Shown here: piece by piece, positions 8,373 through 61,287 of the stretch
How positions within the stretch are numbered: position 1 is the stretch's first letter
Layout: each line of letters starts with the position of its first letter
DNA from: a virus
Lineage: Duplodnaviria; Heunggongvirae; Uroviricota; Caudoviricetes
Direction: 5' to 3' (one strand)
Length of the DNA: 64,000 nucleotides
Virus record (IMG/VR): IMGVR_UViG_3300029705_000015
The notes under the pieces: generated by a model
Told to the model about the DNA's origin: nothing
Seen by the model: only the letters and a program-made list of their open reading frames with translations
Database searches by the model: none
Made by a program: the position numbers and the translations under genes

Positions 8373-10862
8373 ATGGCAGATTCTCTATGGGGTGAAGAAT
8401 TTACTTTCACCCCTCCTCCAAAGCAACAGAAGAAAGTTATTGATAAAGTATCAAAACCTAAGAAGGTAACTACAACAACTGAGAGGGTTGTTAGATCCTC
8501 AAACAAAGTTACAACAGCTGAAAAACTTGCAATGATTGAGGCTGAAGTATACCGAATCTTGGGTGTTTACAAAGATCAAACTGTTGTTCTGAGGACTGAG
8601 GAGGAATTAGCTGAATATATTGATAAAGCAATTCTGAATTCAGTTATTGCAGTTGATACTGAAACAAATAATAGTCTTGTTCCTCTTACATGTAAGATAA
8701 TGGGACTCTGTTTGTATACCCCAGGAATGAAGAACGCTTATATTCCTGTTAATCATGAAAACATTCATACTGGTGAGTTGCTTCCGAATCAGGTTACTGA
8801 GGAGCAGATCCGAAGACAGCTTGAACGACTTACTGATGTTCAGATTATTATGCACAATGGTAAGTTCGACTTTGAGGTTATCAAGTGTACATGTGGTAAT
8901 GAACTTGAAATCTTCTGGGATACAATGATTGCTTCTCGTATTCTTGATGAAAATGAACGAGCAAACTTGAAGCAACAGTATATCAGTAAGATTGACCCTT
9001 CTATTGAGAAGTATTCTATTGAGAAACTTTTTGAAGGAATTGAGTATGCAAAAGTTTCTCCTGAACTTTTTGCATTATATGCAGCTACTGACGCTTTTAT
9101 GACTTATAAGTTGTATGAGTGGCAGAAATCTCAATTTGCTCAGCCAGGTTACGAACGAATGTACAATCTCTTTAAGAATATTGAGATGCCGATTGTTCGT
9201 GTTTGTGCAGATATGGAACTTGCAGGTATTGAGATTGATAAAGAATACGGTGAGCGGTTAAGTGCAAAGTATCACAAGAAACTTGATGCAATTGACAAAC
9301 AGATTGAAGAGACATTACATCAGTATGATCAGATAATTGCAGAATGGAGAAAGACTCCAGAGGCAAATCATAAGGAAAAGAAGCTTAACAAGAAGGGTGA
9401 AGAGACATGGACCAAGTCAAAGAACGAACAGCTCTCTGATCCAATGAGTGTTACAAGCCCGACACAGTTAGCTATATTCTTCTATGATGTTTTGAAGCAT
9501 CCTGTGGTTGATAAGAAGAGTCCTCGAGGAACTGGTGAAGACATCTTGTTGAAGATGGATTATCCCATTGTTAAACTAATCTTGGAAAAGCGTGGCTTAG
9601 AAAAGATAATTGGTACATATGTTGATAAACTTCCTCAATGTGTCATTCCGGAAACTGGTAGACTTCATGCACATTTTAATCAGATTGGTGCTGACACCGG
9701 TCGATTCAGTTCAAGTGATCCCAACTTGCAGAACATTCCTTCTCACTTGAAGGACATTCGTATGCTGTTTAGAGCGGGTGAGGGAAAAGTATTGGTCGGC
9801 AGCGACTTTTCCCAGCAGGAACCGAGATTGCTGTGTTCAATGGCAGGAGATCAAGCAATGATCACTGCTTACAGAAATAAACAAGACCTTTATGCAACAA
9901 TTGCTACAAAGGTGTACAACAACGGCTACTGGGATAACATGGAACACTACGAGGATGGTTCTCCAAATCCCGAAGGAAAGAAGCGTCGTTCAAATTGTAA
10001 GAGTATCCTGTTGGGACTGATGTATGGTCGTGGTGCCGCATCAATTGCTGAACAGATCAATCAGCCAATTCAAGAAGCTCAAAAGATTATTGATACTTTC
10101 TTCAAGGGGTATCCCGCAGTTAAGAAGTGGATTGATAAGACGCAAGCGGATGCAAAGATCAACGGCTATGTTGAAGATCATTGGGGTCGTAGACGTAGAC
10201 TTCCTGATATTTTACGACCTCCTGTGGAGGTTCGGTATTCAGACAAGGATAGAGTTGTTGTACCGTCTGATTTCAATCCGTTACTTGGATCAACTGGCAA
10301 ATATAGTGCAAGCACGCAATCAGATATTGACATCTATAAAGAGAAAGCTCTTGCTACTCGCGGTAGGAAAGAGATGGAAAAGTTAAAGTCTGAAGCTCTT
10401 GCAAAGGGCATCGAAATTCATGAAAACGGTGGATTCATAGCTCAAGCTGAAAGACAATGTGTCAATGCCCGTATTCAAGGTGGTGCTGCAACAATCACGA
10501 AAATTGCGATGAATAAAGTTCATTCCGATCCGGAATTGAGGCGTATGGGATTCAAAATGCTTATCTGTGTTCATGATGAATTGATTGGAGAGTGTCCTGA
10601 AGAATACGCAGAAGCTTGTGGTGAAAGATTGTCGCAAGTTATGATTGAATCTGTAGCTGAGGATGTAGCTTGCCCAATGAAGTGCGATGCCACTATAACT
10701 CGTTATTGGTATGAAGACGAAGTTGCTGCCAAACTGCAAGAGAAATTTGCTGATAAGATTGCACAAGGAGCAGATCCTGAATCAGTTAAACAGCAATTTC
10801 TGGCAGACAATGAAGAACTAACATATGAACAGCTTGAAGGGCTTCTTACAATGAAGTTGTGA
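8373..10862 (+). CDS. polA: Family A DNA polymerase with 3'-5' exonuclease
   Basis: AVDTET, HNGKFD, YAATD; PNLQNIP, SDFSQQEPR, KSILLGLMYG, NARIQG, VHDEL. Confidence 0.95.
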   Translation: MADSLWGEEFTFTPPPKQQKKVIDKVSKPKKVTTTTERVVRSSNKVTTAEKLAMIEAEVYRILGVYKDQTVVLRTEEELAEYIDKAILNSVIAVDTETNNSLVPLTCKIMGLCLYTPGMKNAYIPVNHENIHTGELLPNQVTEEQIRRQLERLTDVQIIMHNGKFDFEVIKCTCGNELEIFWDTMIASRILDENERANLKQQYISKIDPSIEKYSIEKLFEGIEYAKVSPELFALYAATDAFMTYKLYEWQKSQFAQPGYERMYNLFKNIEMPIVRVCADMELAGIEIDKEYGERLSAKYHKKLDAIDKQIEETLHQYDQIIAEWRKTPEANHKEKKLNKKGEETWTKSKNEQLSDPMSVTSPTQLAIFFYDVLKHPVVDKKSPRGTGEDILLKMDYPIVKLILEKRGLEKIIGTYVDKLPQCVIPETGRLHAHFNQIGADTGRFSSSDPNLQNIPSHLKDIRMLFRAGEGKVLVGSDFSQQEPRLLCSMAGDQAMITAYRNKQDLYATIATKVYNNGYWDNMEHYEDGSPNPEGKKRRSNCKSILLGLMYGRGAASIAEQINQPIQEAQKIIDTFFKGYPAVKKWIDKTQADAKINGYVEDHWGRRRRLPDILRPPVEVRYSDKDRVVVPSDFNPLLGSTGKYSASTQSDIDIYKEKALATRGRKEMEKLKSEALAKGIEIHENGGFIAQAERQCVNARIQGGAATITKIAMNKVHSDPELRRMGFKMLICVHDELIGECPEEYAEACGERLSQVMIESVAEDVACPMKCDATITRYWYEDEVAAKLQEKFADKIAQGADPESVKQQFLADNEELTYEQLEGLLTMKL

Positions 10863-10887
10863 TAACTGTTGTATAAATACTTATAAA

Positions 10888-10951
10888 TAAGGGCGGTGTT
10901 CGATCCTACAATCCCTCGCCCTTGATAAAAATATAAATTCAAACTAAGGAG
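10888..10951 (+). ncRNA. Candidate preQ1-I (type I-like) riboswitch
   Basis: Stem aagggcg/cgccctt enclosing G-UUCG...AUC-C, A-rich tail ending AAACUAAGGAG overlapping the SD of a yhhQ-type gene. Confidence 0.6.
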
Positions 10952-10958
10952 ATCAAAT

Positions 10959-11765
10959 ATGACTAGACTAAAGAATTGGATCAAGGATGAAGTAACTGAA
11001 TACAAAAGTTTGTTAAAGAATATTCCGGCGCTACTGCTTGCAGCTTTTTGTTTGGCTGTAGTGTTGATGAATACATTGGCAAACAAGACTATTGTGTCAA
11101 CAGATTGGATTGACATTGATGGAGGTATCCTCTGTGCATGGCTCATTTTTATGGCAATGGATCTAACGGCACAGCATTTCGGACCTCGAGCAGCAACAAA
11201 AATGTCTCTTGTAGGACTTGCTGTAAACCTACTGGTTTGCGGTATTTTTGGAGTTGCATCAATGATCAATATTGGTGGCGGAGCTTGGTCACCTGCATGG
11301 AATTATGCAACAGAAGAAGGATTTAACATTGCTAATGAAGCTGTTAATTCTCTGTTTGCTGGATCCTGGCAAGTTTTGTTGGCAAGTAGTGTTGCATTCA
11401 TTGTTTCTGCAGTTGCTAACAACACAATGAATTGGACCATCGGTAACTTGTTCAAGAACAAGAACACTCCAAGAGCTGAGTATGTAACAAGAGCTTACAT
11501 ATCAACAATGATTGGTCAGTTTGTTGATAATTGGATCTTTAACTTTTTACTATTCATTGTTCTTTTCCAAGATCCAACATGGACGCTGTTGAGTGTAACA
11601 ACTTGTGCAGCCCTGGGCGCACTTGTTGAATTATTCATGGAAATTGTTTTCAGTCCGTTTGGATATAGAGTGGTAACTCGTTGGAGAGCAGAAGCTGTTG
11701 GTCAAGAGTACATTGATACTTATGGTACTGGATTACTTAGATCCAATGTAAACGAGGTGAGATAA
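10959..11765 (+). CDS. yhhQ: VUT/YhhQ-family queuosine precursor (preQ0/preQ1) transporter
   Basis: Multi-TM; MNTLANK, DLTAQHFGPRAA, ISTMIGQFVDNWIF signature. Confidence 0.85.
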   Translation: MTRLKNWIKDEVTEYKSLLKNIPALLLAAFCLAVVLMNTLANKTIVSTDWIDIDGGILCAWLIFMAMDLTAQHFGPRAATKMSLVGLAVNLLVCGIFGVASMINIGGGAWSPAWNYATEEGFNIANEAVNSLFAGSWQVLLASSVAFIVSAVANNTMNWTIGNLFKNKNTPRAEYVTRAYISTMIGQFVDNWIFNFLLFIVLFQDPTWTLLSVTTCAALGALVELFMEIVFSPFGYRVVTRWRAEAVGQEYIDTYGTGLLRSNVNEVR

Positions 11766-11771
11766 TCAGGT

Positions 11772-12038
11772 ATGACAGAATACTTTGACACTTTACTAAC
11801 AGATCCTGTTTCAATCATTGGATTAGTTGCAAGTATCATTGTTCTTGTGTCAATGTGTTTCAATTCATCGACAAAGAGAGGAAACATCCTGATGAGATCA
11901 GTTAATCTGATCGGTAGTATTGTTTCAGTAATCTACGGTATCCTTCTAGGACCGTTAGGTGCGGGAATGATACTTCTCAACGGTGTGCTTGTATTTGTAA
12001 ATTTGTACTATCTGATTGTAACACTTAAGCACAAATGA
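11772..12038 (+). CDS. Small 3-TM membrane protein (YgjV/PQ-loop-like)
   Basis: IIGLVASIIVLVS...MRSVNLIGSIVSVIYG...LLNGVLVFVNLYYL. Confidence 0.6.
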   Translation: MTEYFDTLLTDPVSIIGLVASIIVLVSMCFNSSTKRGNILMRSVNLIGSIVSVIYGILLGPLGAGMILLNGVLVFVNLYYLIVTLKHK

Positions 12039-12044
12039 TATAAC

Positions 12045-12099
12045 AGGCGCAACTATCTGAGGTATAACTTATCTCATTGAGATAGTTGCGCCTATTTTT
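12045..12099 (+). terminator. Terminator-like long hairpin after yhhQ operon
   Basis: aggcgcaactatct/agatagttgcgcct 14-bp stem, inner hairpin, then attttt. Confidence 0.75.
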
Positions 12100-12131
12100 A
12101 ATAAAAATTCTTCCTATTTTCTGGAGAGAAA

Positions 12132-12527
12132 ATGATAAAAGTTTATTCTATTGATGAAGATTATCTTGAAAAATTTTTGAATATGATTCCTGATGAATCT
12201 GTAAAAAATATTCTTGTAACACCGAAAGGAATGTACACAGTTATTTGTAATCATGACCCCGCACATGCAGGTATATATTCATATGTGCTTAGATTACTTG
12301 ATGGTTCTATCAAGCCTGTTAATGAGCGTGTTCTTGAATCATCAGGTTACGATGTACTTAGCTTTTCTTCAGTGAGTCGTAAAATTATTCGTACATATGA
12401 TCTTGGTGTGGAAATACCGAAAGAAAATCAAGAATTCATGATTAACTGCTTACAGAAGTTATTTCGCGATAAAGAGTGTGTATTCTTGAATTCACGTACT
12501 TTCACATTGACACAGTCACTAGTTTAA
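12132..12527 (+). CDS. Hypothetical protein
   Basis: 131 aa ORF with SD ggag. Confidence 0.65.
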   Translation: MIKVYSIDEDYLEKFLNMIPDESVKNILVTPKGMYTVICNHDPAHAGIYSYVLRLLDGSIKPVNERVLESSGYDVLSFSSVSRKIIRTYDLGVEIPKENQEFMINCLQKLFRDKECVFLNSRTFTLTQSLV

Positions 12528-12557
12528 GTTGAATAATTGTAGTTCTTATATTACAAT
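12527..12557 (+). promoter_or_regulatory. AGTTGA-type promoter for dpdA-like gene
   Basis: TTGAAT 12529-12534, 17 bp, TACAAT 12552-12557. Confidence 0.75.
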
Positions 12558-12586
12558 GTTGTTAACTAGAAAATAACAAGGAGGTC

Positions 12587-13798
12587 TTGATGAGTTGTCA
12601 AGTCTACTACTATTCAGGAGCTTATGATCCACAGTTAAAGCGTGACCTGAATATTGATCAGTTGTTTTCTGTGTATCACGAAAAGAAACTGATCATGGAA
12701 ACTGTTACATACAAGAGAGAGCATCCTGAGTATACAGCTAGAATCATGTGTGACAGCGGTGCTTTTACACATTTCCAGCAAATGAAGAAAAAGGGATTGA
12801 CTCTAACTGATCAGGATATCATTGAGTACACTGATACTTATCTTGAGTTCCTCAATGAATGGGGAGATGGTCTTGATTGTTTTGTTGGTGTTGACTCTGT
12901 TCCTGATCCCGAAAATGTTGATCCTACATACGGTGATAAGACCTGGGAAAACTATCTTTATATGTGGGAAAGACTTAATCCTGAAATCCGGCATAAGTTG
13001 ATTCCTGTATTCCACTATGGTGAGGAATGGAAGCACCTTGAAAGATTCTTGGAATACGTTCATCCTGATGGTAGCAAGCTAGATTACATTGGTTTGGCTA
13101 TCTCCTTGGAAGGAACACGTAAAGTCAGAATTAACTGGGGTCAAGATGCAATGAAGATCATTGCAAACAGTAGTAATCCGAATGTTAAGACTCATGCATT
13201 CGGTGTCGGTGTTAAATCTGTTCTTGAACACATTGATGTTTATTCAACAGACGCAACATCTTATCTGAAAAGAGCTGCTTATGGAATGATCAGTATTGAT
13301 GACAAGACAATCTATGTTAGTGACATTCAAAAAGAAATGCTCAGAGGTAACCACTATTCAGAGAAGTCTGCTGCTTATCAGAAATCTGTTGAAGACATTA
13401 TTCATGAGCGTGGATTTACACTTGATCCTTATGAATTGAATTATGAATTCATGGATGCAGATACTGTTAAGTTCACTCTTGATGGTGAGGAGTATCATGT
13501 TCACAAGGATAATGATACAAGTGTTCTTTTGATTCATGGTGATGAAATTGACACCTTGAAGTTGAGCGCAGCTGAGGATGCTCCTGAAGGGGCAGATAAG
13601 TTTTTTGGAACCTGGGAAACAAAGAGGAAAACTTTGATTTTTGACGGCTTAGGAACTGTTCGATTTGATCCTGGTAATGCTCTGGCTACTAACTGTTATG
13701 CAAGAGCAGTTTTCAACATTCAGGATACCGAGAATTGGATGAGTAAGATTCGTGAAATGGCTCCTGCTGTAATTAAAACTAAAGTTGATCTTTGGTGA
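12587..13798 (+). CDS. dpdA: DpdA-like (TGT-fold) base-exchange transglycosylase
   Basis: CDSGAF, FVGVD, PVFHYGE, HAFGV, STDATS match TGT/DpdA catalytic Asp pattern; no bacterial TGT Zn site; linked to yhhQ. Confidence 0.75.
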   Translation: MMSCQVYYYSGAYDPQLKRDLNIDQLFSVYHEKKLIMETVTYKREHPEYTARIMCDSGAFTHFQQMKKKGLTLTDQDIIEYTDTYLEFLNEWGDGLDCFVGVDSVPDPENVDPTYGDKTWENYLYMWERLNPEIRHKLIPVFHYGEEWKHLERFLEYVHPDGSKLDYIGLAISLEGTRKVRINWGQDAMKIIANSSNPNVKTHAFGVGVKSVLEHIDVYSTDATSYLKRAAYGMISIDDKTIYVSDIQKEMLRGNHYSEKSAAYQKSVEDIIHERGFTLDPYELNYEFMDADTVKFTLDGEEYHVHKDNDTSVLLIHGDEIDTLKLSAAEDAPEGADKFFGTWETKRKTLIFDGLGTVRFDPGNALATNCYARAVFNIQDTENWMSKIREMAPAVIKTKVDLW

Positions 13799-13807
13799 GG
13801 TGCTGGT

Positions 13808-14515
13808 ATGAAAGTTTTGATAACTGGAACAAGCTGTGGCGTTGGAAGAGCTGCAGCGGTTAAGTTTCTTGATGAAGGATATGAGGTTGTAGGACTCGAT
13901 GTAAAGGAGCCTTCACTCATTCATGAAAATTATACTCACTACATTTCTGATGTTAGTGATGCAAAGTCTCTTCCTGATGTGGATGGAATCAATTATCTTG
14001 TAAATAACGCAGGAATTGTAACTCCGCAGAAATATGCAATCTTTGTTAATCTGTATGGCTACATCAATGTTCTTGAAAAGTATGGAAATGATCCTGAATT
14101 AAAGAGTATTGTTCAAATCGGTAGTACAGCATCTACAAAGGGCTATGATAACATTCGGTACTGTGCTTCACAAGGTGGTCGAGATGCATTAACAAAATGG
14201 GCTGCGAACAACTTTGGCAAGGATCCTCGACATGTTATTGTTAATTCTTTGAATCTAGATGGTATTGTTGCTGCAGATCCTGAAAGAGGTATTCAAGGAA
14301 CTTCACTAGAACCTGAATTGTATGCACAGCCTGAGTTGATGGAAGAGATTGCAAATCTAAGTGTTCTCAAAAAACTTGCAACAGTAGAGGAGATTGCTGA
14401 ATGGATCTTCTTTCTACTTGTTAAGAACACTGTTATGACTGGTCAGATTATCAACATTGATGGAGAGTTAACAGGTGCGTTCAAGTTTATTCCTTATCCT
14501 GGTTGGAATGATTGA
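13808..14515 (+). CDS. SDR-family NAD(P)-dependent oxidoreductase
   Basis: ITGTSCGVG, VNNAG, GS, Y-x3-Q, MTGQIINIDG. Confidence 0.9.
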   Translation: MKVLITGTSCGVGRAAAVKFLDEGYEVVGLDVKEPSLIHENYTHYISDVSDAKSLPDVDGINYLVNNAGIVTPQKYAIFVNLYGYINVLEKYGNDPELKSIVQIGSTASTKGYDNIRYCASQGGRDALTKWAANNFGKDPRHVIVNSLNLDGIVAADPERGIQGTSLEPELYAQPELMEEIANLSVLKKLATVEEIAEWIFFLLVKNTVMTGQIINIDGELTGAFKFIPYPGWND

Positions 14516-14528
14516 TTGAGAGGTAACT

Positions 14529-15413
14529 ATGGCAAAGATTGTTGGTCTTATTCCTTGTCTCATGCTGGATAACAACAGAGATGCAAACAATGAAGCCATT
14601 GAGCACAACTATAAACATCTGAATCTGGATGCGATTGCAATTTATGATCAAGCCTTTCAAGAAACTGATTATGATGATCGGTTTATCTATGTTGGACATC
14701 AGCCTGATCGTGTTGGATTTACAAACGCTCGTAACGGTTTGTTGAAGTGGTTCTATGAATCAGATTACGATTACGCGTTGTGGTTAGATGCAAATGAGAA
14801 AGTTTCTACTCCAACTATCAATGATACTGTAACTATTGTTGAAGCTTTGAAGGCGGATAAACTGAATCATATTGATGTTATTTTTTCAACTCTCGGGTTG
14901 TGGGTATCTCAGGATAGAATTGTTGCAAAACAGCGTGAAGATTACATGACACATGTTCAATTGATTCCTGCTCTTAACAACAAGAGTTATAACTGGATGC
15001 ATGGACTAATCATGAAGAATTTTAGAAAGTACTATGATCAGCCTGTGTTCATTGATCAGCGATGTGATGTTAAACTTGGCACTCCTGAAGATGTTTATTT
15101 TGCAAGATTGATTCGTAGATACTACAATGCGTATGTTGCTCCAACAATTGTAATCACTAAGCCGAGCTCAAATACATCGACTCATGCAGGAGACGGTAAA
15201 GGAAGATATGTTTATCCTCCTGTTAAGTTTGATGAAGTAGATCAATACATTCTTGAGAATGTAGAAAAAGAAAACCTCAAGATGTGTAACGTTCACTGGT
15301 ATCAAGATTCAGTTAGCCTACCTCGGGTAGAATACATGAAGGAAAAAGTTGCTCCATATAAATCAAGAAAAAAGGAATCGGCTTCAGCTGTAGCTAAAGT
15401 TGATCTATTCTAA
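14529..15413 (+). CDS. GT2/GT-A-like glycosyltransferase
   Basis: GFTNARNGLL...DYALWLDANE resembles GT2 G..AARN...Y(I)LFLD(A)D; later EDVYF. Confidence 0.55.
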   Translation: MAKIVGLIPCLMLDNNRDANNEAIEHNYKHLNLDAIAIYDQAFQETDYDDRFIYVGHQPDRVGFTNARNGLLKWFYESDYDYALWLDANEKVSTPTINDTVTIVEALKADKLNHIDVIFSTLGLWVSQDRIVAKQREDYMTHVQLIPALNNKSYNWMHGLIMKNFRKYYDQPVFIDQRCDVKLGTPEDVYFARLIRRYYNAYVAPTIVITKPSSNTSTHAGDGKGRYVYPPVKFDEVDQYILENVEKENLKMCNVHWYQDSVSLPRVEYMKEKVAPYKSRKKESASAVAKVDLF

Positions 15414-15443
15414 GTTGATTGAGTGACTTCTTAAATATATAAT
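15413..15443 (+). promoter_or_regulatory. AGTTGA-type promoter
   Basis: TTGATT 15415-15420, 17 bp, TATAAT 15438-15443. Confidence 0.85.
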
Positions 15444-15477
15444 CAAAGTGTACATAAATCTGAAAGGAAAATCGTAG

Positions 15478-16605
15478 ATGATTTGTAGAATCGAAGAACT
15501 TCAGAATTCTTGTAGCAAGATTCTTGCTGCTGTGGATTCAAACGCACTGTCTGTACTCACTGAAACTCTACAGCTCAAAACTGTTGATAAAGATTTGTAT
15601 ATCAGTGTTACCAATCGTGAGTACTTTGCTCAGGTAAAGATTCCAATGAATGAAGAGATTGATTTTCATGCAACTGTTAATGCCAATCTGTTCTTGAAGT
15701 TGGTTTCTCAGATTACCACTGACACTATTGAGATGAACATTGTGGACTCTGCACTTGTATTGAAAGGTAACGGAACTTACAAGCTCCCCCTCATCTTTGA
15801 TGGTGATGCGTTGTTGGAATTACCTGAAATCATGATTGACAATCCTACTGTTAATTTTGAAATTGACAGCTCTGTGCTTCTAAGTATGTTACAGTTCAAC
15901 AGTAAGCAGCTGTCTCAGGGTATCATTTCCAAGCCCATTCAGAAACTTTATTATCTAGACGAGTCCGGAGCAGTTACATTTACTACTGGTGCTTGTGTAA
16001 ATAGTTTCAGTTTGGCTCAGCCGGTAAAGCTTCTTCTTAACGATCGTCTTGTTAAGCTCTTCAAGCTTTTCAAAGGTGAAAAGGTTCAGTTTACTCTCGG
16101 ATATGATGCTATTAGTTCTGATATTATTCAGACAAAGGTGAGATTTGCAACTTCAGACATCATCATAACTGCAATCTTGTCTTGTGATGATACTATGCTG
16201 AGATCATTTCCTGTTAATGCAGTTAGAGGTCGTGCAAATGCAGGATATCCTTATTCAGTAAATATCAATCGTGAAGCACTTATTCAGACTATCAGTCGTC
16301 TGTTACTGTTTAGTTCTGCAAACAGTGCAAAGGATGTTATTAAGCCTTATAGCGTCTTTGAGTTCAAGAAGGATAGCGTTGTAGTTTATGACGCTAAGAA
16401 GGAAAACAAGGAAGAGGTGTATTACACCAATACTACTTGTGACATGGAAAACAATTACAGTGCTCTGTTAGATCTAAACGATCTTAAGCAGACTCTTGAG
16501 ACTTGTACTGAGCAGTATGTCACTATCCACTTTGGTGATGGTCAGGCTGTTGTTCTTTCCAGAGGCAATGTCAAGAATGTTATTCCTGAGTGCATTCTAA
16601 ACTGA
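15478..16605 (+). CDS. dnaN: DNA polymerase III beta-type sliding clamp
   Basis: 375 aa, three-domain periodicity, ISVTNRE, typical clamp size and context. Confidence 0.8.
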   Translation: MICRIEELQNSCSKILAAVDSNALSVLTETLQLKTVDKDLYISVTNREYFAQVKIPMNEEIDFHATVNANLFLKLVSQITTDTIEMNIVDSALVLKGNGTYKLPLIFDGDALLELPEIMIDNPTVNFEIDSSVLLSMLQFNSKQLSQGIISKPIQKLYYLDESGAVTFTTGACVNSFSLAQPVKLLLNDRLVKLFKLFKGEKVQFTLGYDAISSDIIQTKVRFATSDIIITAILSCDDTMLRSFPVNAVRGRANAGYPYSVNINREALIQTISRLLLFSSANSAKDVIKPYSVFEFKKDSVVVYDAKKENKEEVYYTNTTCDMENNYSALLDLNDLKQTLETCTEQYVTIHFGDGQAVVLSRGNVKNVIPECILN

Positions 16606-16606
16606 T

Positions 16607-17077
16607 TTGTCAGTTAACAGAGGAAAACAGTTCGAAGGAAAATTTCGTGAAGACTTTCGGAAGCTGACAGGTAGTTTTGTTTATAGACTACCTGATCAGA
16701 CTTCAGGAAATCTTGGATCTCGAAATTTATGTGACTTTGTATGTTATGTTTATCCCTATCTCTTTATTCTGGAAGTAAAGAGCACAAGCGGTAATACGTT
16801 TCCAATAACAAATTTCACTCAGTATCAAACAATGATGCAATATAGAGGTGCTCAAGGTGTTAGAATGGGTGTTGTTATATGGTACACAGAGAAAGATAGA
16901 GTCATATATGTTCCTTTAACAACAATTGAAAAGATGAAACAAGACGGAAAGAAATCAGTCAATATTCGGACACTAGATTCTGAGGAATACGAGTTTCTTG
17001 ATATTCCTTCAACAAAGAAGCGTGTGTTCATGGATTCTGATTATTCTGTTCTGTTAGATTTACCGGAGGGATGGTAA
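16607..17077 (+). CDS. recU: RecU-like Holliday junction resolvase
   Basis: NRGKQFE, CDFV, LEVKST PD-(D/E)xK pattern. Confidence 0.8.
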   Translation: MSVNRGKQFEGKFREDFRKLTGSFVYRLPDQTSGNLGSRNLCDFVCYVYPYLFILEVKSTSGNTFPITNFTQYQTMMQYRGAQGVRMGVVIWYTEKDRVIYVPLTTIEKMKQDGKKSVNIRTLDSEEYEFLDIPSTKKRVFMDSDYSVLLDLPEGW

Positions 17078-17078
17078 C

Positions 17079-17561
17079 TTGAAAAATAATGTTTCTGTAG
17101 CTTTGGATAATGTCGATATGACATATTCTGAGTTGATTGAAGTTGCAAATTCCTTGAACGAGGAGTTTACAGGAGATTTGAATAGAATGATGGAAAGTGC
17201 TTACAATGATGTTGAAAAACTTTCCAATGACGCTATTCGAGATCTTATCTTGAGATTGTCTCTAAGATCTTATTCCTTTAGTGAGATTAAGGAGAAGTCA
17301 ATTTTCAAAGCTGCTCTTGCTGAAACCCTACGCAAGGAAGCTTACGCAAGAAACTACAATGAAACTAGTGGCACCGGTGGTGTCAAAGAGAACACTGCAA
17401 TCATCAATACGTCTGCAGAAATTCTTGCAGACGAGATCTACTCTCTGGCTGCATCAATGTTCAAAACAAAACTTGACGAAGTGCATAGAGTGGTTGACTC
17501 TCTGAAGACAGTTCTCATGTCTCGTTTATCAGAGGCAAAACTTACTAACGTTGATGGTTGA
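17079..17561 (+). CDS. Helical hypothetical protein (possible recombination mediator)
   Basis: 160 aa helical ORF between recU and recA; function is inference. Confidence 0.5.
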   Translation: MKNNVSVALDNVDMTYSELIEVANSLNEEFTGDLNRMMESAYNDVEKLSNDAIRDLILRLSLRSYSFSEIKEKSIFKAALAETLRKEAYARNYNETSGTGGVKENTAIINTSAEILADEIYSLAASMFKTKLDEVHRVVDSLKTVLMSRLSEAKLTNVDG

Positions 17562-17574
17562 TTAGGAGAATAGA

Positions 17575-18738
17575 ATGAGTTCAGTTCTAGAAATTGCAAA
17601 AAAGCTGAATAGAGCTTATAAGAATGAAAAACTTGCTCTTACTGCAGATGTGATGCCATCTTATGAGCGACTTGCTTGTAATGATCTGGGTGCTGATTTT
17701 CCTCTGTATGGTGGTTTACCTTACGGAAGAATTGTAACAGTATCGGGTAAAGAGCATAGTGGTAAGACAACTGGTGCTTGTACTTACTTAGCCGCTTATC
17801 AAAGAGCTAATCCTGATAAGACTTGTGTTTTTGTTGACGTGGAACACGCTCTTGATAAAGAGTTCCAAGCTGCTATGACCGGGCTGGATCTTACAAAGCT
17901 GTTGTATGTTAATCCTGAAGGGATGTCTGGAGAACAGATCATGGATGCTATTATCGAGTTTCAGGACTCGGATGATATCGGAATGATTGTCCTTGACTCT
18001 ATTGCAGCTCTCGTTTCTTCAAGAGACTACGATACAGATATTGAAAAAGACAACGGTATGTCTGGCGGCATTGCAAAGCCTCTTGCAAAGTTTATTCGTA
18101 AGATGCTTGATCCTCTTGCCGCTAAAAAGAATATTTTACTGTTGATTAATCAGGTTCGTACTGTTGGAACAACCTTTACTGGTGCACCCATCTATGATGA
18201 GCCTGGTGGTCATGCACCTAAGTACTATGCTTCTGTTAAGCTTCGTTTCGGCACAAGAACATTCACTCAAGGTGACAAGGTTGATGCTCGTGATGGTGAG
18301 AACGCAGACGGTTTCCGTTTAACATTTGCAACAACAAAGAATAAGACCGCTTCTACACAGCGTGGCGGTGGTTTCATGACTTTCCGTTATGATTCAGGAT
18401 TGGATTGGGCTTTTGATTTACTAGAAGTTGCTATCAAGTATGATTTTATCAGTAGACCTAATTCAATGAGCTACATCTTGATGAATCTAGAAACAGGGGA
18501 AGCATATACTTATGATGATGGAAGTGTTATGAAGTTTGTTGGTAAACAGAAACTTCGTGACTTCCTGAACAGTCATGTTGAATTCCAAAATGAGTACATT
18601 GCAATGTTGAATAGACATATTTGCGCTACTGCGAATAAGTACGGTAGTCTTCTGGATGCTCGTGAGCTTGCTGCCATTACAGCTGAGGAGGCGTCTTGCG
18701 AGAAAGAGGGCGATAGCAAGCCTCCTGTTGAGGATTGA
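17575..18738 (+). CDS. recA: RecA recombinase
   Basis: GGLPYGRIVTVSGKEHSGKTT, DVEHALD, VLDSIAAL, INQVR, PGGHAPKYYAS. Confidence 0.95.
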   Translation: MSSVLEIAKKLNRAYKNEKLALTADVMPSYERLACNDLGADFPLYGGLPYGRIVTVSGKEHSGKTTGACTYLAAYQRANPDKTCVFVDVEHALDKEFQAAMTGLDLTKLLYVNPEGMSGEQIMDAIIEFQDSDDIGMIVLDSIAALVSSRDYDTDIEKDNGMSGGIAKPLAKFIRKMLDPLAAKKNILLLINQVRTVGTTFTGAPIYDEPGGHAPKYYASVKLRFGTRTFTQGDKVDARDGENADGFRLTFATTKNKTASTQRGGGFMTFRYDSGLDWAFDLLEVAIKYDFISRPNSMSYILMNLETGEAYTYDDGSVMKFVGKQKLRDFLNSHVEFQNEYIAMLNRHICATANKYGSLLDARELAAITAEEASCEKEGDSKPPVED

Positions 18739-18740
18739 TC

Positions 18741-20186: not shown

Positions 20187-20207
20187 TCTTGATCTTTACA
20201 ATATAAT
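20177..20207 (+). promoter_or_regulatory. AGTTGA-type promoter
   Basis: TTGATT 20179-20184, 17 bp, TATAAT 20202-20207. Confidence 0.85.
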
Positions 20208-20268
20208 ATTGATGTAGAAATATCAATTGAAGAACGAGTAGATCCTCGTTGCTTTGCAGAATTATTTC

Positions 20269-20306
20269 AGAGCAGGGAGTACAAGTTCCCTGCTCTATTT
20301 TGTTTT
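20269..20306 (+). terminator. Rho-independent terminator within leader of HD gene
   Basis: agagcaggga/tccctgctct 10-bp stem then attttgtttt. Confidence 0.85.
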
Positions 20307-20319
20307 AAGGAGATGACTC

Positions 20320-21347: not shown

Positions 21348-22367
21348 ATGGCTGAAGCATTGAGCGTCAAATATCGTCCTCGACAGTTTGAGGATGTTTG
21401 TAGTCAGGCGTCTATTGTTAAAATTCTAGAAAGACAGATTGCAACAGGTGAGTTTAAGAACAGCTACTTGTTTCAAGGAGCAAGTGGCTGCGGTAAGACT
21501 ACTTGTGCAAGAATTTTTGCAAATGAAATCAATGGTGGTGTAGGATCCCCGATTGAAATTGATGCAGCTTCTAACAATGGAGTAGATAATGTAAAGAACA
21601 TTATTCGTTCCGCACAGGAAAGAAGTATTGATAGTAAGTACAAGATCTACATTATTGATGAGTGTCATAGTTTGACCTCTCAAGCTTGGCAAGCATTCTT
21701 AAAGTGTATTGAGGAGCCCCCAACATACACAATCTTCATCTTCTGCACAACTGATCCTCAGAAGATTCCTGAAACTATCAAAAACAGAGTTCAGAGATAT
21801 ACATTCAACAGAATTCCTGTTAATGTTATTCGTGATAGGCTTGCGTATATCTGTAGACAAGAAGGGTTTACAAATTTCGAAGAATCAATTGATTACATTG
21901 CTAAAATCAGTGACGGTGGTATGAGAGCAGCCATCAGCTATCTTGATAAGTGTACAGGTTATAGCACCGATCTCAATATCAACAATGTGTTAACTAGTTT
22001 AGGCAACTATTCATATGACACATTCTTTGATCTGATCAACTACATGATTGACGGATCAGAAGCACCAGTTCTAAAACTTATCTCTGATTTCTATGACGAT
22101 GGAAACGACTTGAAACTCTTTGTTGATCAGTTCCTGAATTTCTGTATGGATGTTACAAAGTATTCACTATTCAATTCTTGTGATGCAACGAGGATTCCAT
22201 CAAGTATGGAAGATAAGCTTCGTGGAGCCACAAACTTTGATAATGCTTCAAAGTATTACAGTTATGTTATTGATAAACTTCTTGTTTTGAAGAATATGCT
22301 GAAGAACGACAATAGCCCTAGATCTACTATTGAGATACTACTATTACAGATAACAAGATGTGCATAA
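21348..22367 (+). CDS. dnaX: Clamp loader gamma/tau subunit
   Basis: KYRP, GASGCGKTT, EIDAASNNGVD, IIDECH, LKCIEEPP, GGMRAA. Confidence 0.95.
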   Translation: MAEALSVKYRPRQFEDVCSQASIVKILERQIATGEFKNSYLFQGASGCGKTTCARIFANEINGGVGSPIEIDAASNNGVDNVKNIIRSAQERSIDSKYKIYIIDECHSLTSQAWQAFLKCIEEPPTYTIFIFCTTDPQKIPETIKNRVQRYTFNRIPVNVIRDRLAYICRQEGFTNFEESIDYIAKISDGGMRAAISYLDKCTGYSTDLNINNVLTSLGNYSYDTFFDLINYMIDGSEAPVLKLISDFYDDGNDLKLFVDQFLNFCMDVTKYSLFNSCDATRIPSSMEDKLRGATNFDNASKYYSYVIDKLLVLKNMLKNDNSPRSTIEILLLQITRCA

Positions 22368-23172
22368 GGAGGCAATTGTGGTCACTGGTCAAGAAAAGAT
22401 TTGTGGATTTATAGATAGTTCCACAATTGACGATTTTCCAAGATCATTGATGCTGGTTGGTGCAAGGGGATCCGGAAAGCACATGATCTGTGATTACATT
22501 TCAAGTAAGTTTAATCTATCAACAGTTGATTTAACTGATCAACTTGATTTAGAAACAATTGAGGAACTGTATAATCGGGTAGAGCCTTATCTGTATGTAA
22601 TCAGAATCAACGAAATTTCCGTTAAAGAAGAAAATACTATTCTTAAATTTCTGGAAGAGCCACTAAAGAACTCATTCATTGTACTTATTGCAGAAACTGA
22701 TCTTGGTATTCTACAAACAATTCTGAATAGATGCCAGATATGGTATCTACAGAATTATAGAAAAGAATTTTTAAGTAGGTTTGTCGGTGATGGAAATCCT
22801 TACATTCTGGAAATTGCTCAAACTCCTGGGCAAGTAATAGAACTTAGTAAGATTGATTTTACCGAAATCATTGATCTTGCTGATAAGATACTTGATAAGA
22901 TATCTGTGGCAAGTATTGCGAATACTTTGTCTCTTAGCGGGAAAGTTGGATTTAAGAACGATCCTGACCGTCCCGATGTTAAGTTGTTTGTTGATGTCTT
23001 GTTATCAAGAATTATGAGTAAGTGTAGAACTAACTCAGATATACGATTAGTTCAAGCGTACACATTAACAAATGAATTACAGAAGAATCTGAGAATCAAG
23101 AATTTAGATTACAAATCTTTGTTTGAACGATTCTTGATTGAACTCAGATCTATCATGAAAGGAACAGTATGA
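22360..23172 (+). CDS. holB: Clamp loader delta-prime subunit
   Basis: GARGSGK, ENTILKFLEEP, LQTILNRC (SRC-like). Confidence 0.85.
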   Translation: MHKEAIVVTGQEKICGFIDSSTIDDFPRSLMLVGARGSGKHMICDYISSKFNLSTVDLTDQLDLETIEELYNRVEPYLYVIRINEISVKEENTILKFLEEPLKNSFIVLIAETDLGILQTILNRCQIWYLQNYRKEFLSRFVGDGNPYILEIAQTPGQVIELSKIDFTEIIDLADKILDKISVASIANTLSLSGKVGFKNDPDRPDVKLFVDVLLSRIMSKCRTNSDIRLVQAYTLTNELQKNLRIKNLDYKSLFERFLIELRSIMKGTV

Positions 23173-24086
23173 CAATTCAAGAGTTGAAATCTTACATTGA
23201 AACTAAAAATGTTCCTCATGATCTAATTATCTTCAAAGATACAGAAAATAATTTTATCTCCAATCAATACATAAAAGCGATATCAACAATTAGAAAACAA
23301 GAGATTGAATACATAGAATCTCCTCTTGATCTATTGCAGGATGCTTGGTCTATTTTTGGTGGAGAAGAACCGGTTGTAGACACACTAAGAGTTGTTAAGG
23401 CTCCTGTTTTTGTTTGGGATAATGTTAAGATTTCAGCTGTTAAAGATCTGATAATTGTTGTATCTAAATTTCAGGATAAATCAGTTGAAAAGATGTTTGA
23501 ACGCTGGATTGTAAATGTTCCTAAGATTGAGGATTGGATGTTGAAAGACTATGTCTATTCCACAACTGAGGGCGTTGCTCACAAGGACCTCGATTGGTTG
23601 ATAAGTCTTTGCGGAACTAACATCAGTAGACTTCAGATGGAGCTTGATAAGTTAGCCTTGTTTGGAGTTGACGAGCGAAAGTATGTGTTCAATGATCTGA
23701 TTCGTGATGGAGCAGTTGATGATCTTAGCTCATATAACATCTTCAATTTCACGAATGCAATAACATCCAGAGATGTAATGGCTCTGAAAAGTATCTATAG
23801 AGAACTTGATAGAGTTGATATCAACGAATTTGGTTTGTTAACTATTCTTGTAAAGAACTTTAGAAATATCTTGATGGTTCAAACAACAGCTAACCCCACA
23901 CCTGAATCAACAGGGCTAGATGGTAAACAGCTGTATGCAATAAAGAAAATTCCAAGAGTGTACACTCCTCAACAACTTGTTAATATCTATGAGTTTCTGC
24001 TGGATATTGATCGAAGAGTTAAAATTGGTGAGTTACCAGCTGATACACTCATTGATTACATAATCATAAAGATTTTAAGTATGTGA
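23169..24086 (+). CDS. holA: Clamp loader delta subunit
   Basis: WSIF clamp-contact motif position, LQMELDKLAL, IFNFTNAI, EFLLDIDRRVKIG. Confidence 0.75.
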   Translation: MTIQELKSYIETKNVPHDLIIFKDTENNFISNQYIKAISTIRKQEIEYIESPLDLLQDAWSIFGGEEPVVDTLRVVKAPVFVWDNVKISAVKDLIIVVSKFQDKSVEKMFERWIVNVPKIEDWMLKDYVYSTTEGVAHKDLDWLISLCGTNISRLQMELDKLALFGVDERKYVFNDLIRDGAVDDLSSYNIFNFTNAITSRDVMALKSIYRELDRVDINEFGLLTILVKNFRNILMVQTTANPTPESTGLDGKQLYAIKKIPRVYTPQQLVNIYEFLLDIDRRVKIGELPADTLIDYIIIKILSM

Positions 24087-37739: not shown

Positions 37740-39731
37740 ATGACTGATATTGCAGCTATGAAATCACTTGTTGCAAACATGAATAAGTATAGAGATGCTT
37801 ATTACAATGATAATGAAAGTTTGATTTCAGATCTTGAATACGATAACTTGATGGATCAGCTTCAAGAGCTTGAAAGAACTACAGGAATTGTTCTTGCAAA
37901 CTCACCAACAAGAACTGTTGGTTATGAAGTAAAGTCAGCATTGAAGAAGGTTAAGCATGATCATCCTATGTTGTCTCTTGATAAGACAAAAGACATCACC
38001 GAAATTGTAAAGTTCCTACAGAACAAAGAAACTATTGTTATGGCAAAGATGGACGGTCTAACATGCAGCATCAAGTATGTTGATGGAAAACTTGTTAGTG
38101 CTGAAACACGCGGTGACGGTGTTGAGGGTGAAGATATCACACATAACATGAGGGCTGTTGATGGAGTACCTCAGCAGATAAATCAGAACGGAATTGTAGT
38201 TATCGATGGAGAGTTAATCATTGATGATCTTACATTTGAAAGAGTTCGTGAAAAATTTGTTGATAACAAAGGTAGAAAATACAAGAACTCAAGAAATCTT
38301 GCCGCAGGATCCGTAAGATTGCTGGATAGTTCAGAATGTTCGAAACGAGGCGTTCAATTTGTTGCTTGGAAACCAATTCAAGGATTGAACAACAAGACTC
38401 TTAGCGAAGGATTGTTAAAACTCGAAAGTCTCGGATTTACAATTGTTCCTCATGTTTGTTTAACTGAGATTACAAAAGATGGTTGCCAGTGGGCAGTTGA
38501 TTTCATTGAGCAACTGGCTGATACCTGTGCTTATCCTATTGATGGCTGTGTATTTGGTTTCGATGATGTTAAGTTTGCTGAAGCTCAAGGAATGACTTCT
38601 CATCATTTGAAGAGTCAGATTGCATTCAAATTTTATGACGAACTGTATGATACTGTAGTTCGTAGTATAGATTGGACTATGGGAAAGACTGGTGTACTTA
38701 CACCTACTGCAATCTTTGATACAGTTGAAATTGATGGTACTGAGGTCAGTAGAGCAAGTTTACATAACTTAACCATCATGTCTCAATTAAATGTTCGTAA
38801 GAATTGTACTGCAAGAGTATTTAAGGCAAACATGATTATTCCTCAAATTGATTCAACTGATAATGACGGTGAGGAAGATTTTATCATTCCTGATTCTTGT
38901 CCGGTCTGCGGAGGCTTAACTATTCGAGTACAAGATAATGATTCTGAAATGCTGAAGTGTAACAATCCGAACTGTAAGGGCAAGTTACTTGGAAAGTTGT
39001 GCACATTTGTTTCGAAGCAAGGAATGGATATCGATGGCCTTGGAGAGCAAACTTTAGCTCAGTTTATTGAGCTTGGATACTTGAAGGAATTTAGTGATAT
39101 CTATCGACTCAAGAATTATGCACCCAGACTAATAACTCTTCCTGGATTTGGAAAATCTTCAATTGACAAGATGCTTGCATCCATTGAGAAATCAAGAGAT
39201 GTTACGCTTGAAAGATTGATTGCGGCTGTTAGCATTGACGGTGTCGGATTAGATACTGCTAAGAAAATTTCAAAGTTTTTTGATGGCGATCTAAATAAAT
39301 TCTTGGATGCTCTTACAACAAAGTTTGATTTTAGTAAACTTGATGGCTTCGGTGAGCGTTCAAATGAACTTATCCATCAGTGGTTTGAGTTGAACAAAGA
39401 TCAGTTACTTGATGTTTGTGTGCACACTACAATCAAACAGGATAGTAAACCAGTTGTTGTAGACTGCTCCAGTCCAATCAATGGAAAAACTTTCTGCATT
39501 ACAGGTACTTTTGAATATCCTCGAAAAGACATTCAAAAAGAAATTGAAGCTTGTGGAGGAATCTTTGTTAGTGGTGTAACAAAGAAAACTGATATTCTGT
39601 TTATTGGAGACTGTGACAACTCAAATAGAAAATCAAGTAAGCAGCAGAAGGCTGAGGAATTAGGTATTCCAGTTATTCGGGAAGAACATTTTAGAGCTTA
39701 CTTGAATGGTAACTACGAGGTTAGTGAATGA
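37740..39731 (+). CDS. ligA: NAD-dependent DNA ligase
   Basis: YY...ISDLEYD, MLSLDK, KMDGL, RGDG, CPVCG..CNNPNC, BRCT (TFCITG). Confidence 0.95.
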   Translation: MTDIAAMKSLVANMNKYRDAYYNDNESLISDLEYDNLMDQLQELERTTGIVLANSPTRTVGYEVKSALKKVKHDHPMLSLDKTKDITEIVKFLQNKETIVMAKMDGLTCSIKYVDGKLVSAETRGDGVEGEDITHNMRAVDGVPQQINQNGIVVIDGELIIDDLTFERVREKFVDNKGRKYKNSRNLAAGSVRLLDSSECSKRGVQFVAWKPIQGLNNKTLSEGLLKLESLGFTIVPHVCLTEITKDGCQWAVDFIEQLADTCAYPIDGCVFGFDDVKFAEAQGMTSHHLKSQIAFKFYDELYDTVVRSIDWTMGKTGVLTPTAIFDTVEIDGTEVSRASLHNLTIMSQLNVRKNCTARVFKANMIIPQIDSTDNDGEEDFIIPDSCPVCGGLTIRVQDNDSEMLKCNNPNCKGKLLGKLCTFVSKQGMDIDGLGEQTLAQFIELGYLKEFSDIYRLKNYAPRLITLPGFGKSSIDKMLASIEKSRDVTLERLIAAVSIDGVGLDTAKKISKFFDGDLNKFLDALTTKFDFSKLDGFGERSNELIHQWFELNKDQLLDVCVHTTIKQDSKPVVVDCSSPINGKTFCITGTFEYPRKDIQKEIEACGGIFVSGVTKKTDILFIGDCDNSNRKSSKQQKAEELGIPVIREEHFRAYLNGNYEVSE

Positions 39732-41350
39732 GAAAATCGACTTGGAATGTAAAAGTAAATGGACAGGGAACGCCTGTTAATCAGATAATGAATCAGTTGT
39801 GGGCAAGTAGGGGAATTGATAACCCGGAAGTGTTTATGCATCCAGAAGGATATATATTTCCTTCAACTGATCTAAAAAATATTGAGTCTGCTGGAAAACT
39901 ATTTCAAGAGCATATTGATAAGCATAGTAAATTCTTGATCTATGCAGATGTTGATGCTGACGGATGTTCCTCCGCAGCAATTCTATGTCACTATTTGCGT
40001 AATTTTGATGTTGACATTGAAGTTTACATTAACAATAAGAAAGAACACGGTGTAACGGATGAGTTCTTTGATCGTCCGTATGGTGATGAAAATATTGTAA
40101 TTGTTGTTGATTCTATCAATGATACAATGCGGGAATATGATATTATTCTTGGAGCAGGAATTGATCTAATTGTTCTTGATCATCATATTCCATCTGAAGA
40201 AATTCTTGCCAATCAAGAAAAGATTCATCTTGTAAGTTCAGCAAATGAATATCCAAATCCGCATCTTAGTGGTAGCGGAGTAACTTGGAAGTTTGTAAAC
40301 TATGTTGATCAACTTATGAAGAAAAACTACGCATCTGACTTGATGGATCTTGCTGCTGTTGGAATCATAGCAGATGTCTGTAGCGTTGGCACTGAGTCAA
40401 TGGAAAATCGAGAAATCTGCGACAAGGGTATGGCATACATTTGTAATGTTGGATTGCGTGCTGTACTTGGAACTAACGAAATGAACGCTGACTCAATTGC
40501 ATTTTCCGTGGCTCCTCTTGTTAATGCTGCAAACAGAATGAACGATAACAGACTTGCACTTGATCTGTTTCTTGTTGATAATACTGCAGATGCAAAAAAG
40601 ATTGTTAAGTCGTTAACAAGAATAAAAGAGAAGCAGAAACTTCTTGTTGCTGAGTTGTTTGAAGGATTTGAAGAACAGGCACAAGAGCAGCTTAACAGGA
40701 AGTGCATGTATTTCATTGTTGATGAAACCTGTGGAACCCTTGGTGGACTTCTGGCAACAAAAGCATCAGATAAGTGGAACAGACCTGTTATTGTTGTACG
40801 AGAAACCGATAGGGGGTACGCAGGGTCAATGCGAGCCACTGGAGTTGATAATTTCAGTGAGATTGTTAATGATTCTGGTCTTGGTGAGTGCGCAGGCCAT
40901 GAGAATTCAGCTGGAATCCTGATTCCTTTTGAAAACTTTGTCGCATTACAAGATCACATAGAAAATGCATTAACAGGAATGACTGTAACAACAGAACAAG
41001 ATATTGATCTATATGTTGAGCGTATGCAGATAACACCATTCCTGATTGGCAAGCTGCGTGAATTCAACAGAATAGCAGGGCCCGGGTTCCCAACAATAAA
41101 AGTGCTAATTGAGAATGTTTCAAAATATACTGTTAAACCAATGTCTCAAGGAAAGCATCTTTGTATTGAAGTTCCTGACATGAAATTCTTGTACTGGAAT
41201 TTTAATAAGTGGGACGATATTGCCGATGAAGGAGTTCTTTCTGCAGTCGGAACTCTTGACGAGTCATTCTTTGCTGGAAAAAGATCCACTCAGATGATTA
41301 TGCAGGATTATATATTTGAAGCACTACCAACAAAGGCAAATCTGTGGTAG
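39728..41350 (+). CDS. recJ: RecJ-like ssDNA exonuclease
   Basis: YADVDADG, VVDS, LDHH, NAANR, GSMR, AGHENSAG. Confidence 0.9.
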   Translation: MRKSTWNVKVNGQGTPVNQIMNQLWASRGIDNPEVFMHPEGYIFPSTDLKNIESAGKLFQEHIDKHSKFLIYADVDADGCSSAAILCHYLRNFDVDIEVYINNKKEHGVTDEFFDRPYGDENIVIVVDSINDTMREYDIILGAGIDLIVLDHHIPSEEILANQEKIHLVSSANEYPNPHLSGSGVTWKFVNYVDQLMKKNYASDLMDLAAVGIIADVCSVGTESMENREICDKGMAYICNVGLRAVLGTNEMNADSIAFSVAPLVNAANRMNDNRLALDLFLVDNTADAKKIVKSLTRIKEKQKLLVAELFEGFEEQAQEQLNRKCMYFIVDETCGTLGGLLATKASDKWNRPVIVVRETDRGYAGSMRATGVDNFSEIVNDSGLGECAGHENSAGILIPFENFVALQDHIENALTGMTVTTEQDIDLYVERMQITPFLIGKLREFNRIAGPGFPTIKVLIENVSKYTVKPMSQGKHLCIEVPDMKFLYWNFNKWDDIADEGVLSAVGTLDESFFAGKRSTQMIMQDYIFEALPTKANLW

Positions 41351-60894: not shown

Positions 60895-61287
60895 ATGGCA
60901 AAGATTATTTACAAGTTAGGTCCACAATGTAGTGGAAAAACAGCTTGGTTGTGTCAGCAAGCTAAACGAGAAGCCGGAAAAGAAATTGTTTACTACACCT
61001 CTCCTGAACGAGTACGACATGCAAACAGTTTTGCAGAAAAATATGAATATATGTATACAGGAGTCTGCTCATTCGATGTGGTAACAAATCCTGATGATAT
61101 TGCGTTAGACACAAGAGTCATCTTGATTGATGAGTTTATGCGGATTCCTGATGCATCTCAAGTTGTACATAAGTTTGAAAACAACGATAATGTCACAATC
61201 TATGTTGTATTAACTCAAGAGGATTATGACACCGAAAACATTGAAACTCCCAGTAAACAAGATTGGGATCAGTTATCATTATTCTAA
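60895..61287 (+). CDS. Small P-loop NTPase (thymidine-kinase-like) ending QLSLF
   Basis: Own translation: GPQCSGKT Walker A, VILIDEF Walker B, 130 aa. Confidence 0.7.
   Translation: MAKIIYKLGPQCSGKTAWLCQQAKREAGKEIVYYTSPERVRHANSFAEKYEYMYTGVCSFDVVTNPDDIALDTRVILIDEFMRIPDASQVVHKFENNDNVTIYVVLTQEDYDTENIETPSKQDWDQLSLF

Follow-up and report, generated by a model that had tools for sequence, protein, structure and literature searches.

Introduction

In phages CAjan, 9g and Dp-1, the presence of dPreQ0, dG+ or dPreQ1 in DNA is proven to depend on DpdA (PMC6884629). The papers on these enzymes describe the modification as post-replicative, and give neither a targeting mechanism nor a link to a sliding clamp (PMC6884629, PMC10516641). 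In bacteria, bDpdA requires the ATPase DpdB for preQ0 insertion into DNA (PMC10164549). Here, we analysed a 64,000-nucleotide stretch (hereafter referred to as the window) of virus record IMGVR_UViG_3300029705_000015 from IMG/VR (Caudoviricetes), in which a DpdA-like transglycosylase and a glycosyltransferase (GT)-like enzyme of GT-A fold end in near-identical peptides, KVDLW and KVDLF, that resemble the docking peptides of sliding-clamp clients. We consider it probable, at about 0.6, that both tails are beta-clamp-binding motifs tethering DNA-acting modification enzymes to the clamp encoded by the phage itself.

The motif recognized by the bacterial beta clamp is reportedly QL[S/D]LF, a consensus ascribed to Dalrymple et al. 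in 2001. Clients of this clamp include Pol II, IV and V, delta, Hda, whose motif is N-terminal, and MutS. The locus described here shares with that system the [S/D]-L-F at positions 3–5, the flexible terminus, the proposed use of one pocket for many clients and the SLF of the delta 'wrench'. The N-terminal placement found here in the polymerase has a precedent in Hda, and a P-loop protein of the window carries the exact QLSLF. By contrast, K or R replaces Q at position 1, position 2 varies, and the last position holds W as often as F; moreover, the proposed clients are DNA-hypermodification enzymes, and their clamp is a highly divergent one encoded by the phage. In eukaryotes, the DNA methyltransferase DNMT1 and the DNA glycosylase UNG2 are tethered to the clamp PCNA by a PIP box. 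These are likewise enzymes that work on bases of duplex DNA and are held on a clamp to act on new DNA, but PIP box and PCNA are eukaryotic, and neither the enzymes nor the motif are homologous to those of the window. Phage Mu, according to a recent report, recruits the beta clamp of its host to transcribe its late genes.

Docking of clients through terminal peptides is well established for the bacterial beta clamp (PMC9690074) and for T4 gp45 (PMC2988020, PMC7892883). The gp45 clients gp43 (the polymerase), gp55 and gp33 bind via C-terminal hydrophobic tails (PMC2988020, PMC7892883). The gp45 of T4 and RB69 resembles our proposal in that a phage clamp acts as the hub for non-polymerase proteins that copy the docking peptide of the polymerase, and differs in being a PCNA-like trimer with another motif and with transcription factors as its extra clients, whereas the polymerase of the window belongs to family A and has its peptide at the N-terminus. 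With phage DpdA1 of CAjan, 9g and Dp-1 (PMC6884629, PMC10516641), the locus shares the enzyme family, a module of precursor supply, dpdA, clamp and recombination genes, and a C-terminal LF; unlike them, the window phage imports its precursor (yhhQ) rather than making it, adds a short-chain dehydrogenase/reductase (SDR) and the GT-A enzyme, and has a DpdA at only 23–30% identity to theirs (tblastn; Dp-1 gp7, 30%, E 1e-26). The bacterial Dpd system also has a DpdA-family transglycosylase that depends on a helper for its work on DNA; no DpdB was seen in the operon of the window, where the proposed helper is the clamp, engaged via the terminal peptide. In a literature search, no paper was found that ties a clamp to DpdA or to any DNA glycosyltransferase of a phage, and no description of hypermodification enzymes as beta-clamp clients was met. 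What is new is the client class, DNA-hypermodification enzymes; terminal clamp-docking peptides as such are already known.

Two modification enzymes share a conserved, disordered C-terminal peptide

The two enzymes and their tails are the following; structures were predicted with AlphaFold2 (AF2) and scored by the predicted local distance difference test (pLDDT).

12587..13798, plus strand: DpdA-like DNA 7-deazaguanine transglycosylase, TGT fold (403 residues; phrog_887, E 9e-35; AF2 pLDDT 91.4)
13781..13795, plus strand: KVDLW, C-terminal peptide of DpdA, clamp-binding-like motif (homologue alignment, AF2 coil)
14529..15413, plus strand: GT-A-fold (GT2-like) glycosyltransferase-like enzyme (294 residues; AF2 pLDDT 91, Foldseek)
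15396..15410, plus strand: KVDLF, C-terminal peptide of the GT-A enzyme, clamp-binding-like motif (homologue tails, AF2)

The translations read ...IKTKVDLW* for the DpdA open reading frame (ORF) and ...AVAKVDLF* for the GT-A enzyme, confirming the shared KVDL[W/F] terminus that an earlier note on this DNA had pointed out. The coordinates given there are right for KVDLW* and KVDLF*, while the longer strings it wrote out, KTKVDLW and AKVDLF, begin 6 and 3 bases further upstream.

The DpdA model is a TGT (beta/alpha)8-barrel, which Foldseek places with the TGTs of Z. mobilis and P. horikoshii at probability 1.0 (E 6e-7). The protein did not reach the cut-off of the Pfam TGT model PF01702 and matched no Pfam family at E ≤ 0.01, because this clade is too divergent for the model. 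Residues D56-S57-G58 and D222 are invariant in an alignment of 51 homologues, their equivalence to TGT D102/D280 being one of motif likeness only. By its sequence, 12587–13798 encodes a DpdA-like enzyme with a putative role in inserting 7-deazaguanine bases into DNA. The program-called start of this ORF is TTG 12587, and homologues begin at the next ATG (MSCQVYY...); the true start is probably ATG 12590, giving a protein of 402 residues.

For the second enzyme, AF2 and Foldseek gave a GT-A fold, in agreement with its earlier GT2-like label, with probability 1.0 to AvpGT (9jma), TarP (6h1j), TarS (5tzi) and RmlT at template-modelling scores of 0.45–0.54. It matched no Pfam family, Glycos_transf_2 included, and no PHROG family. 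At the position of the DxD motif it has a DxN variant, L-D87-A-N89, in which D87 and N89 are invariant across homologues. We infer that this enzyme acts on DNA.

Conservation of the two termini, which the earlier note had named as a check, is pronounced. All 120 listed DpdA homologues (55–98% identity) end in [KR]x[DESTN]L[WF] or ..LGW, including short forms that are without an 80-residue insert. Across the 51 aligned homologues, L402 is invariant and position 403 is W in at least 90% and otherwise F; the linker of 10–14 residues preceding the motif varies in both length and sequence. In the AF2 model, residues 391–403 form a coil whose pLDDT falls from 71 to 47. In about 46 of 60 GT homologues, a basic linker that differs in length leads up to a terminal [KR][VI]xL[FW], and residues 271–294 of the GT-A enzyme are unstructured (pLDDT 51–56).

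A profile search with DpdA of 1.84 billion cluster representatives (50% identity) returned 1767 proteins, the best 149 of which were inspected. An L[FW] or LG[FW] terminus is present in 101 of these best 149, and roughly 11 more have [LIV]F 1–3 residues before the end. The tail is retained in homologues down to E ~1e-24, and its consensus among the cluster representatives of this wider family is basic, [KR][KR]xLF.

A motif this short invites the suspicion that the two C-termini resemble each other by chance. A terminal L[F/W] is present in four of the 85 plus-strand ORFs, whereas the internal frequency of this dipeptide in the same proteins predicts 0.42 (binomial P ~9e-4). As a background, ~0.5% of proteins would have a terminal L[FW], and the five-residue pattern, defined post hoc, would be expected 0.05 times among the 85 ORFs. 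Conservation in hundreds of homologues refutes coincidence, to which we assign a negligible probability. The motif observation is confirmed as real and lies far beyond chance.

The same core occurs on four other proteins

Four further proteins of the window carry a related core.

8373..10862, plus strand: family A DNA polymerase, PolA, with N-terminal MADSLWG at 8373–8393 (PF00476/PF01612)
23169..24086, plus strand: clamp-loader delta, HolA-like, with WSIFG at residues 60–64 (23346–23360) (PF21694)
39728..41350, plus strand: RecJ-like exonuclease ending KANLW (41333–41347) (PF01368/PF17768)
60895..61287, plus strand: P-loop protein of 130 residues ending QLSLF (61270–61284) (weak AAA_14/TK matches)

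All four peptides, KANLW, MADSLW, QLSLF and WSIF, had been read by the earlier note and stand in the translations, and the likeness to the bacterial pentapeptide that it claimed for the tails extends over positions 3–5. Among the proteins of the window, only PolA has [DENSTG]L[FW] within its first eight residues. All complete PolA N-termini of relatives read M(x0-3)SLWG; the PolA of Dp-1 begins MAQKGLFG, and that of the relative L041 has DLFG near its start. The delta WSIFG aligns with SLFG in relatives, and its position matches that of the SLF 'wrench' by which E. coli delta grips the clamp. Two homologues of RecJ, 85% and 54% identical to it, have the termini KASLW and QVSLW. The P-loop protein has the exact canonical bacterial pentapeptide; a homologue at 54% identity ends in QLTLF, and one at 30% is without the tail. 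These two pairs of homologues came from the records behind the relatives' loci, and single-protein scans of viral contigs yielded one relative for RecJ and none for the P-loop protein. With a canonical QLSLF on the P-loop protein, and with F and W interchangeable, the notion of a phage-specific clamp code that could keep modification on phage DNA, put forward in the earlier note, finds no support.

Within the replication module of the relatives, a terminus of this type is confined to DpdA and GT among 27 ortholog groups. The SDR and, where these are encoded in the clusters, the CofD-like protein and the nucleotidyltransferase end without such a tail. In relative L038, a 92.9-kb gut contig, DpdA ends in KKVLW and GT in NKSLW, and a 141-residue protein encoded just upstream of dpdA (9256–9681), with weak N6_Mtase/AviRa matches, ends in KVSLW; it is a putative third DNA modifier with a tail.

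The tails might instead serve the enzymes themselves, in oligomerisation, stability, degradation through a C-terminal degron or direct DNA contact, their likeness being convergent. Hydrophobic C-termini can be protease tags, and many homologues have basic residues before LF. However, both tails are unpacked in the AF2 models, their linkers are free to vary while the last residues are fixed, and the peptide recurs on RecJ and on enzymes with folds as unrelated as the TGT barrel and GT-A. We regard such a housekeeping role as unlikely, and binding to the phage clamp as the better account.

A second terminal 'code' was seen in the window. The DnaB-like helicase (5125–6402) has an acidic C-terminal tail closed by F, GGNPF in the window, EEDVF, GDDVF or GEEAF in relatives and EGVEAF in Dp-1 DnaB, and a 248-residue protein (3647–4393) has an ..EVF terminus in all relatives. 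These tails are reminiscent of the acidic F-terminated tails of T7 gp4, T7 gp2.5 and SSB, which dock to other parts of the replisome. RecU (16607–17077) ends in LLDLPEGW, and relatives keep L-x-[DSN]-L-P-[ED]-x-W (LKSLPEGW, LRDLPEGW, LLNLPDNW, LLDLEETW); this terminus could be a hexapeptide-type clamp motif (compare QLSLPL of Hda) or part of the fold.

The phage clamp is the candidate partner

The proposed docking partner and two of its loader subunits are encoded downstream.

15478..16605, plus strand: DnaN-like (beta-type) sliding clamp, proposed docking partner (375 residues; phrog_947, E 9e-16, residues 7–363)
21348..23172, plus strand: DnaX-like and delta'-like clamp-loader subunits (PF13177, PF12169, PF22608)

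The gene that the earlier note took for a clamp next door is DnaN-like. Its PF00712 score, 23.7 bits, lies slightly below the cut-off of 24.4, and a profile search matched domain I of H. pylori beta in the PDB (E 2.6e-6); in the complex runs described below its pLDDT is 90. With DnaX, delta' and delta, the phage encodes a full clamp loader. In all examined relatives whose flanks are long enough, the clamp gene lies 1–4 genes downstream of dpdA, and likewise in Dp-1.

Cultured phages show the same association. The DpdA of CAjan ends in ...RVMELF, that of Dp-1 in ...QRRLF and that of 9g in ...LQDLFDE; therefore, the feature is old and general in phage DpdA, and not peculiar to the window. All three phages encode a phrog_947 clamp. 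In 9g its gene directly follows dpdA, and the order in CAjan is dpdA-gp34-clamp-polymerase. The module of Dp-1 has the same order as that of the window: PolA, a DUF165/YhhQ-type gene, queuosine genes, DpdA (gp7), DnaN (gp10), RecU, RecA, DnaX and HolA. The sole Dp-1 protein with an LF terminus is gp7; the Dp-1 phage–host interactome lists no gp7 or DnaN pair.

These arrangements bear on whether the tails dock to host DnaN instead of, or besides, the phage clamp, so that recruitment would occur wherever host-type clamps sit. The QLSLF of the P-loop protein is the exact bacterial consensus, and the beta clamps of cells recognize an [SD]-L-F core. Against this stand the phage's own full loader and the finding that every tailed lineage examined with enough flank has its own clamp near dpdA. 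Docking to host DnaN is an improbable alternative in our estimate, and the phage clamp our preferred partner.

Complex prediction was run on the clamp and DpdA residues 362–403, both as alignments, with three controls. The pair scored 0.58 (runs 0.58, 0.63 and 0.51) against 0.00 for the best control, with at least 81% contact agreement among runs and a partner pLDDT of at least 48. Of 80 solved complexes, 58 reached the mark, as did 2 of 110 mismatched pairs; scores ≤ 0.60 accounted for just 7 of the 80 solved complexes and for both passing mismatches. This check, which the earlier note had suggested, thus lends weak support. That the tails physically bind the clamp pocket is a model-based prediction.

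Another hub of the replisome, such as PolA, an SSB-like protein or the DnaB-like helicase, might bind the peptide in place of the clamp. The phage has other terminal codes, the acidic tail plus F of the helicase and the 248-residue protein, and the basic [KR][KR]xLF of the wider DpdA family departs from Q-L. Yet delta, which is known for no task other than gripping the clamp, has S[IL]F(G) where the wrench lies, the controls of the complex prediction scored 0.00, and none of the other candidate hubs matches the clamp in the constancy of its linkage to dpdA. We give a different hub little weight, about as much as host DnaN and slightly more than a housekeeping role.

Several observations weigh against clamp binding. 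The single in-silico test was weak and came without reported interface contacts; complexes of beta clamps with peptides have already been solved, so that the pass may reflect likeness to them and not binding of this clamp to this DpdA. Positions 1 and 2 of the motif differ from the bacterial Q-L, position 1 being K, and the basic [KR][KR]xLF consensus could serve another partner. About one quarter of the DpdA cluster representatives are tail-less though their phages encode clamps (L036; probably L034 and L041), as is the DpdA of Cellulophaga phage phi3ST:2; therefore, the tail is not obligatory. When the phage clamp was aligned with solved beta clamps, domain I alone aligned; the protein has diverged too far from its cellular counterparts for the peptide pocket to be located by sequence. 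Finally, F and W do not strictly covary, L024 combining SLW in PolA with SLF in DpdA.

Two simple rules were accordingly rejected. That the N-terminus of PolA and the C-terminus of DpdA always agree in F or W is true of Dp-1 (F/F) and the window phage (W/W), but not of L024; and tail presence does not track the presence of a phage clamp, since the tail-less L036 (probably also L034 and L041) and phi3ST:2 encode one as well.

In phi3ST:2 (L028), the short, tail-less DpdA is followed by a gene for a protein with a ParB-like nuclease domain (1218–1682). By analogy, this protein may be an alternative helper for DNA engagement, because bacterial DpdB is ParB-like.

Operon and neighbouring genes

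The window belongs to the genome of a large, uncultured phage of the gut, known from metagenomes only, whose closest contigs are ~200 kb; a megablast search of the operon against cultured phages gave no match. The module spans 8373–24086 in the order PolA, YhhQ, a tight dpdA-SDR-GT operon, clamp, RecU, RecA, DnaX, delta' and delta. Two genes of it remain to be introduced.

10959..11765, plus strand: YhhQ/Vut_1 importer of a 7-deazaguanine precursor, upstream of the modification operon (PF02592, E 4e-22)
13808..14515, plus strand: SDR (PF13561/PF00106), ending YPGWND, no clamp-like tail

Promoter-like sites at 12529 and 15415 bracket the operon in a promoter and terminator scan of 12000–16000 that overall was not above shuffles. 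The YhhQ importer is syntenic in relatives and in Dp-1 (gp72). In L024 (9061–9549) and L014 (9386–9874), a nucleoside 2-deoxyribosyltransferase-like gene (PF05014) lies between yhhQ and dpdA.

The SDR gene follows dpdA in nearly all relatives examined (synteny in L003–L018, L024 and L038). It is the constant partner of the present DpdA clade and has a conserved C-terminus of its own, YPGW[DN]x; the enzyme may act on the 7-deazaguanine base in a step not yet described. Not all relatives have the GT gene, which is therefore an add-on to the DpdA-SDR core. The 'one pathway' proposed in the earlier note is plausible, dpdA, SDR and GT forming a single tight operon, with the reservation of this patchy GT distribution.

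In relatives L003 (12880–15339) and L024 (13000–15421), genes for a CofD-like protein (565–581 residues) and an NTP_transf_3 nucleotidyltransferase (236–239 residues) lie between GT and clamp. The pair resembles CofC/CofD of F420 synthesis, and neither protein is tailed; it suggests a larger, possibly phospho-linked hypermodification.

The PolA gene of the window is intact. In many relatives it is divided into two or three ORFs (L003, 3064–6986; L005, L013, L015, L016 and L024), with an unrelated ORF of ~300–345 residues or a gap between the pieces. These splits are probably mobile insertions (intein, intron or homing endonuclease).

Discussion

The earlier note had both modification enzymes riding on the phage clamp. 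A conserved motif on disordered tails, recurring on likely clamp partners, speaks for this; the binding itself is the step that we infer. Each of the two flexible tails has x-x-[D/S/E]-L-[F/W] as its free C-terminal end (KVDLW, KVDLF) and would most likely insert it in the peptide pocket of the phage clamp. The N-terminal SLWG of PolA, the SIFG of delta and the KANLW of RecJ probably use the same site on the clamp.

Clamps are loaded at primer ends and stay behind on the DNA just synthesized. Held by such clamps, the base-exchange enzyme and its follow-up transferase would be enriched on freshly replicated phage DNA, making modification replication-coupled, and the phage would probably modify its DNA at the replication fork. 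The distribution of tails within the clusters fits a division of labour in which the enzymes that act on the DNA polymer would be tailed, and the makers of donors or precursors (SDR, CofD-like protein and nucleotidyltransferase) would be without a tail.

More broadly, and with odds that we regard as even, most phage DpdA may be clamp clients, as judged from about two thirds of the sampled 50%-identity clusters and from CAjan, 9g and Dp-1. The clamp would then take a DpdB-like role in DNA engagement, bases would be inserted on fresh DNA marked by the clamp, and the tail would mark those enzymes of a cluster that act on DNA.

If true, the proposal would provide a mechanism for how DpdA finds phage DNA, and for why modification spans 0.1% to 100% of guanines. 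It would be directly testable in CAjan and 9g, two phages of E. coli that have the same tail on their DpdA. It would also supply an annotation rule for the genes of hypermodification clusters, a tail indicating action on the DNA polymer, and base-exchange and sugar-transfer enzymes would join the clients of bacterial-type clamps.

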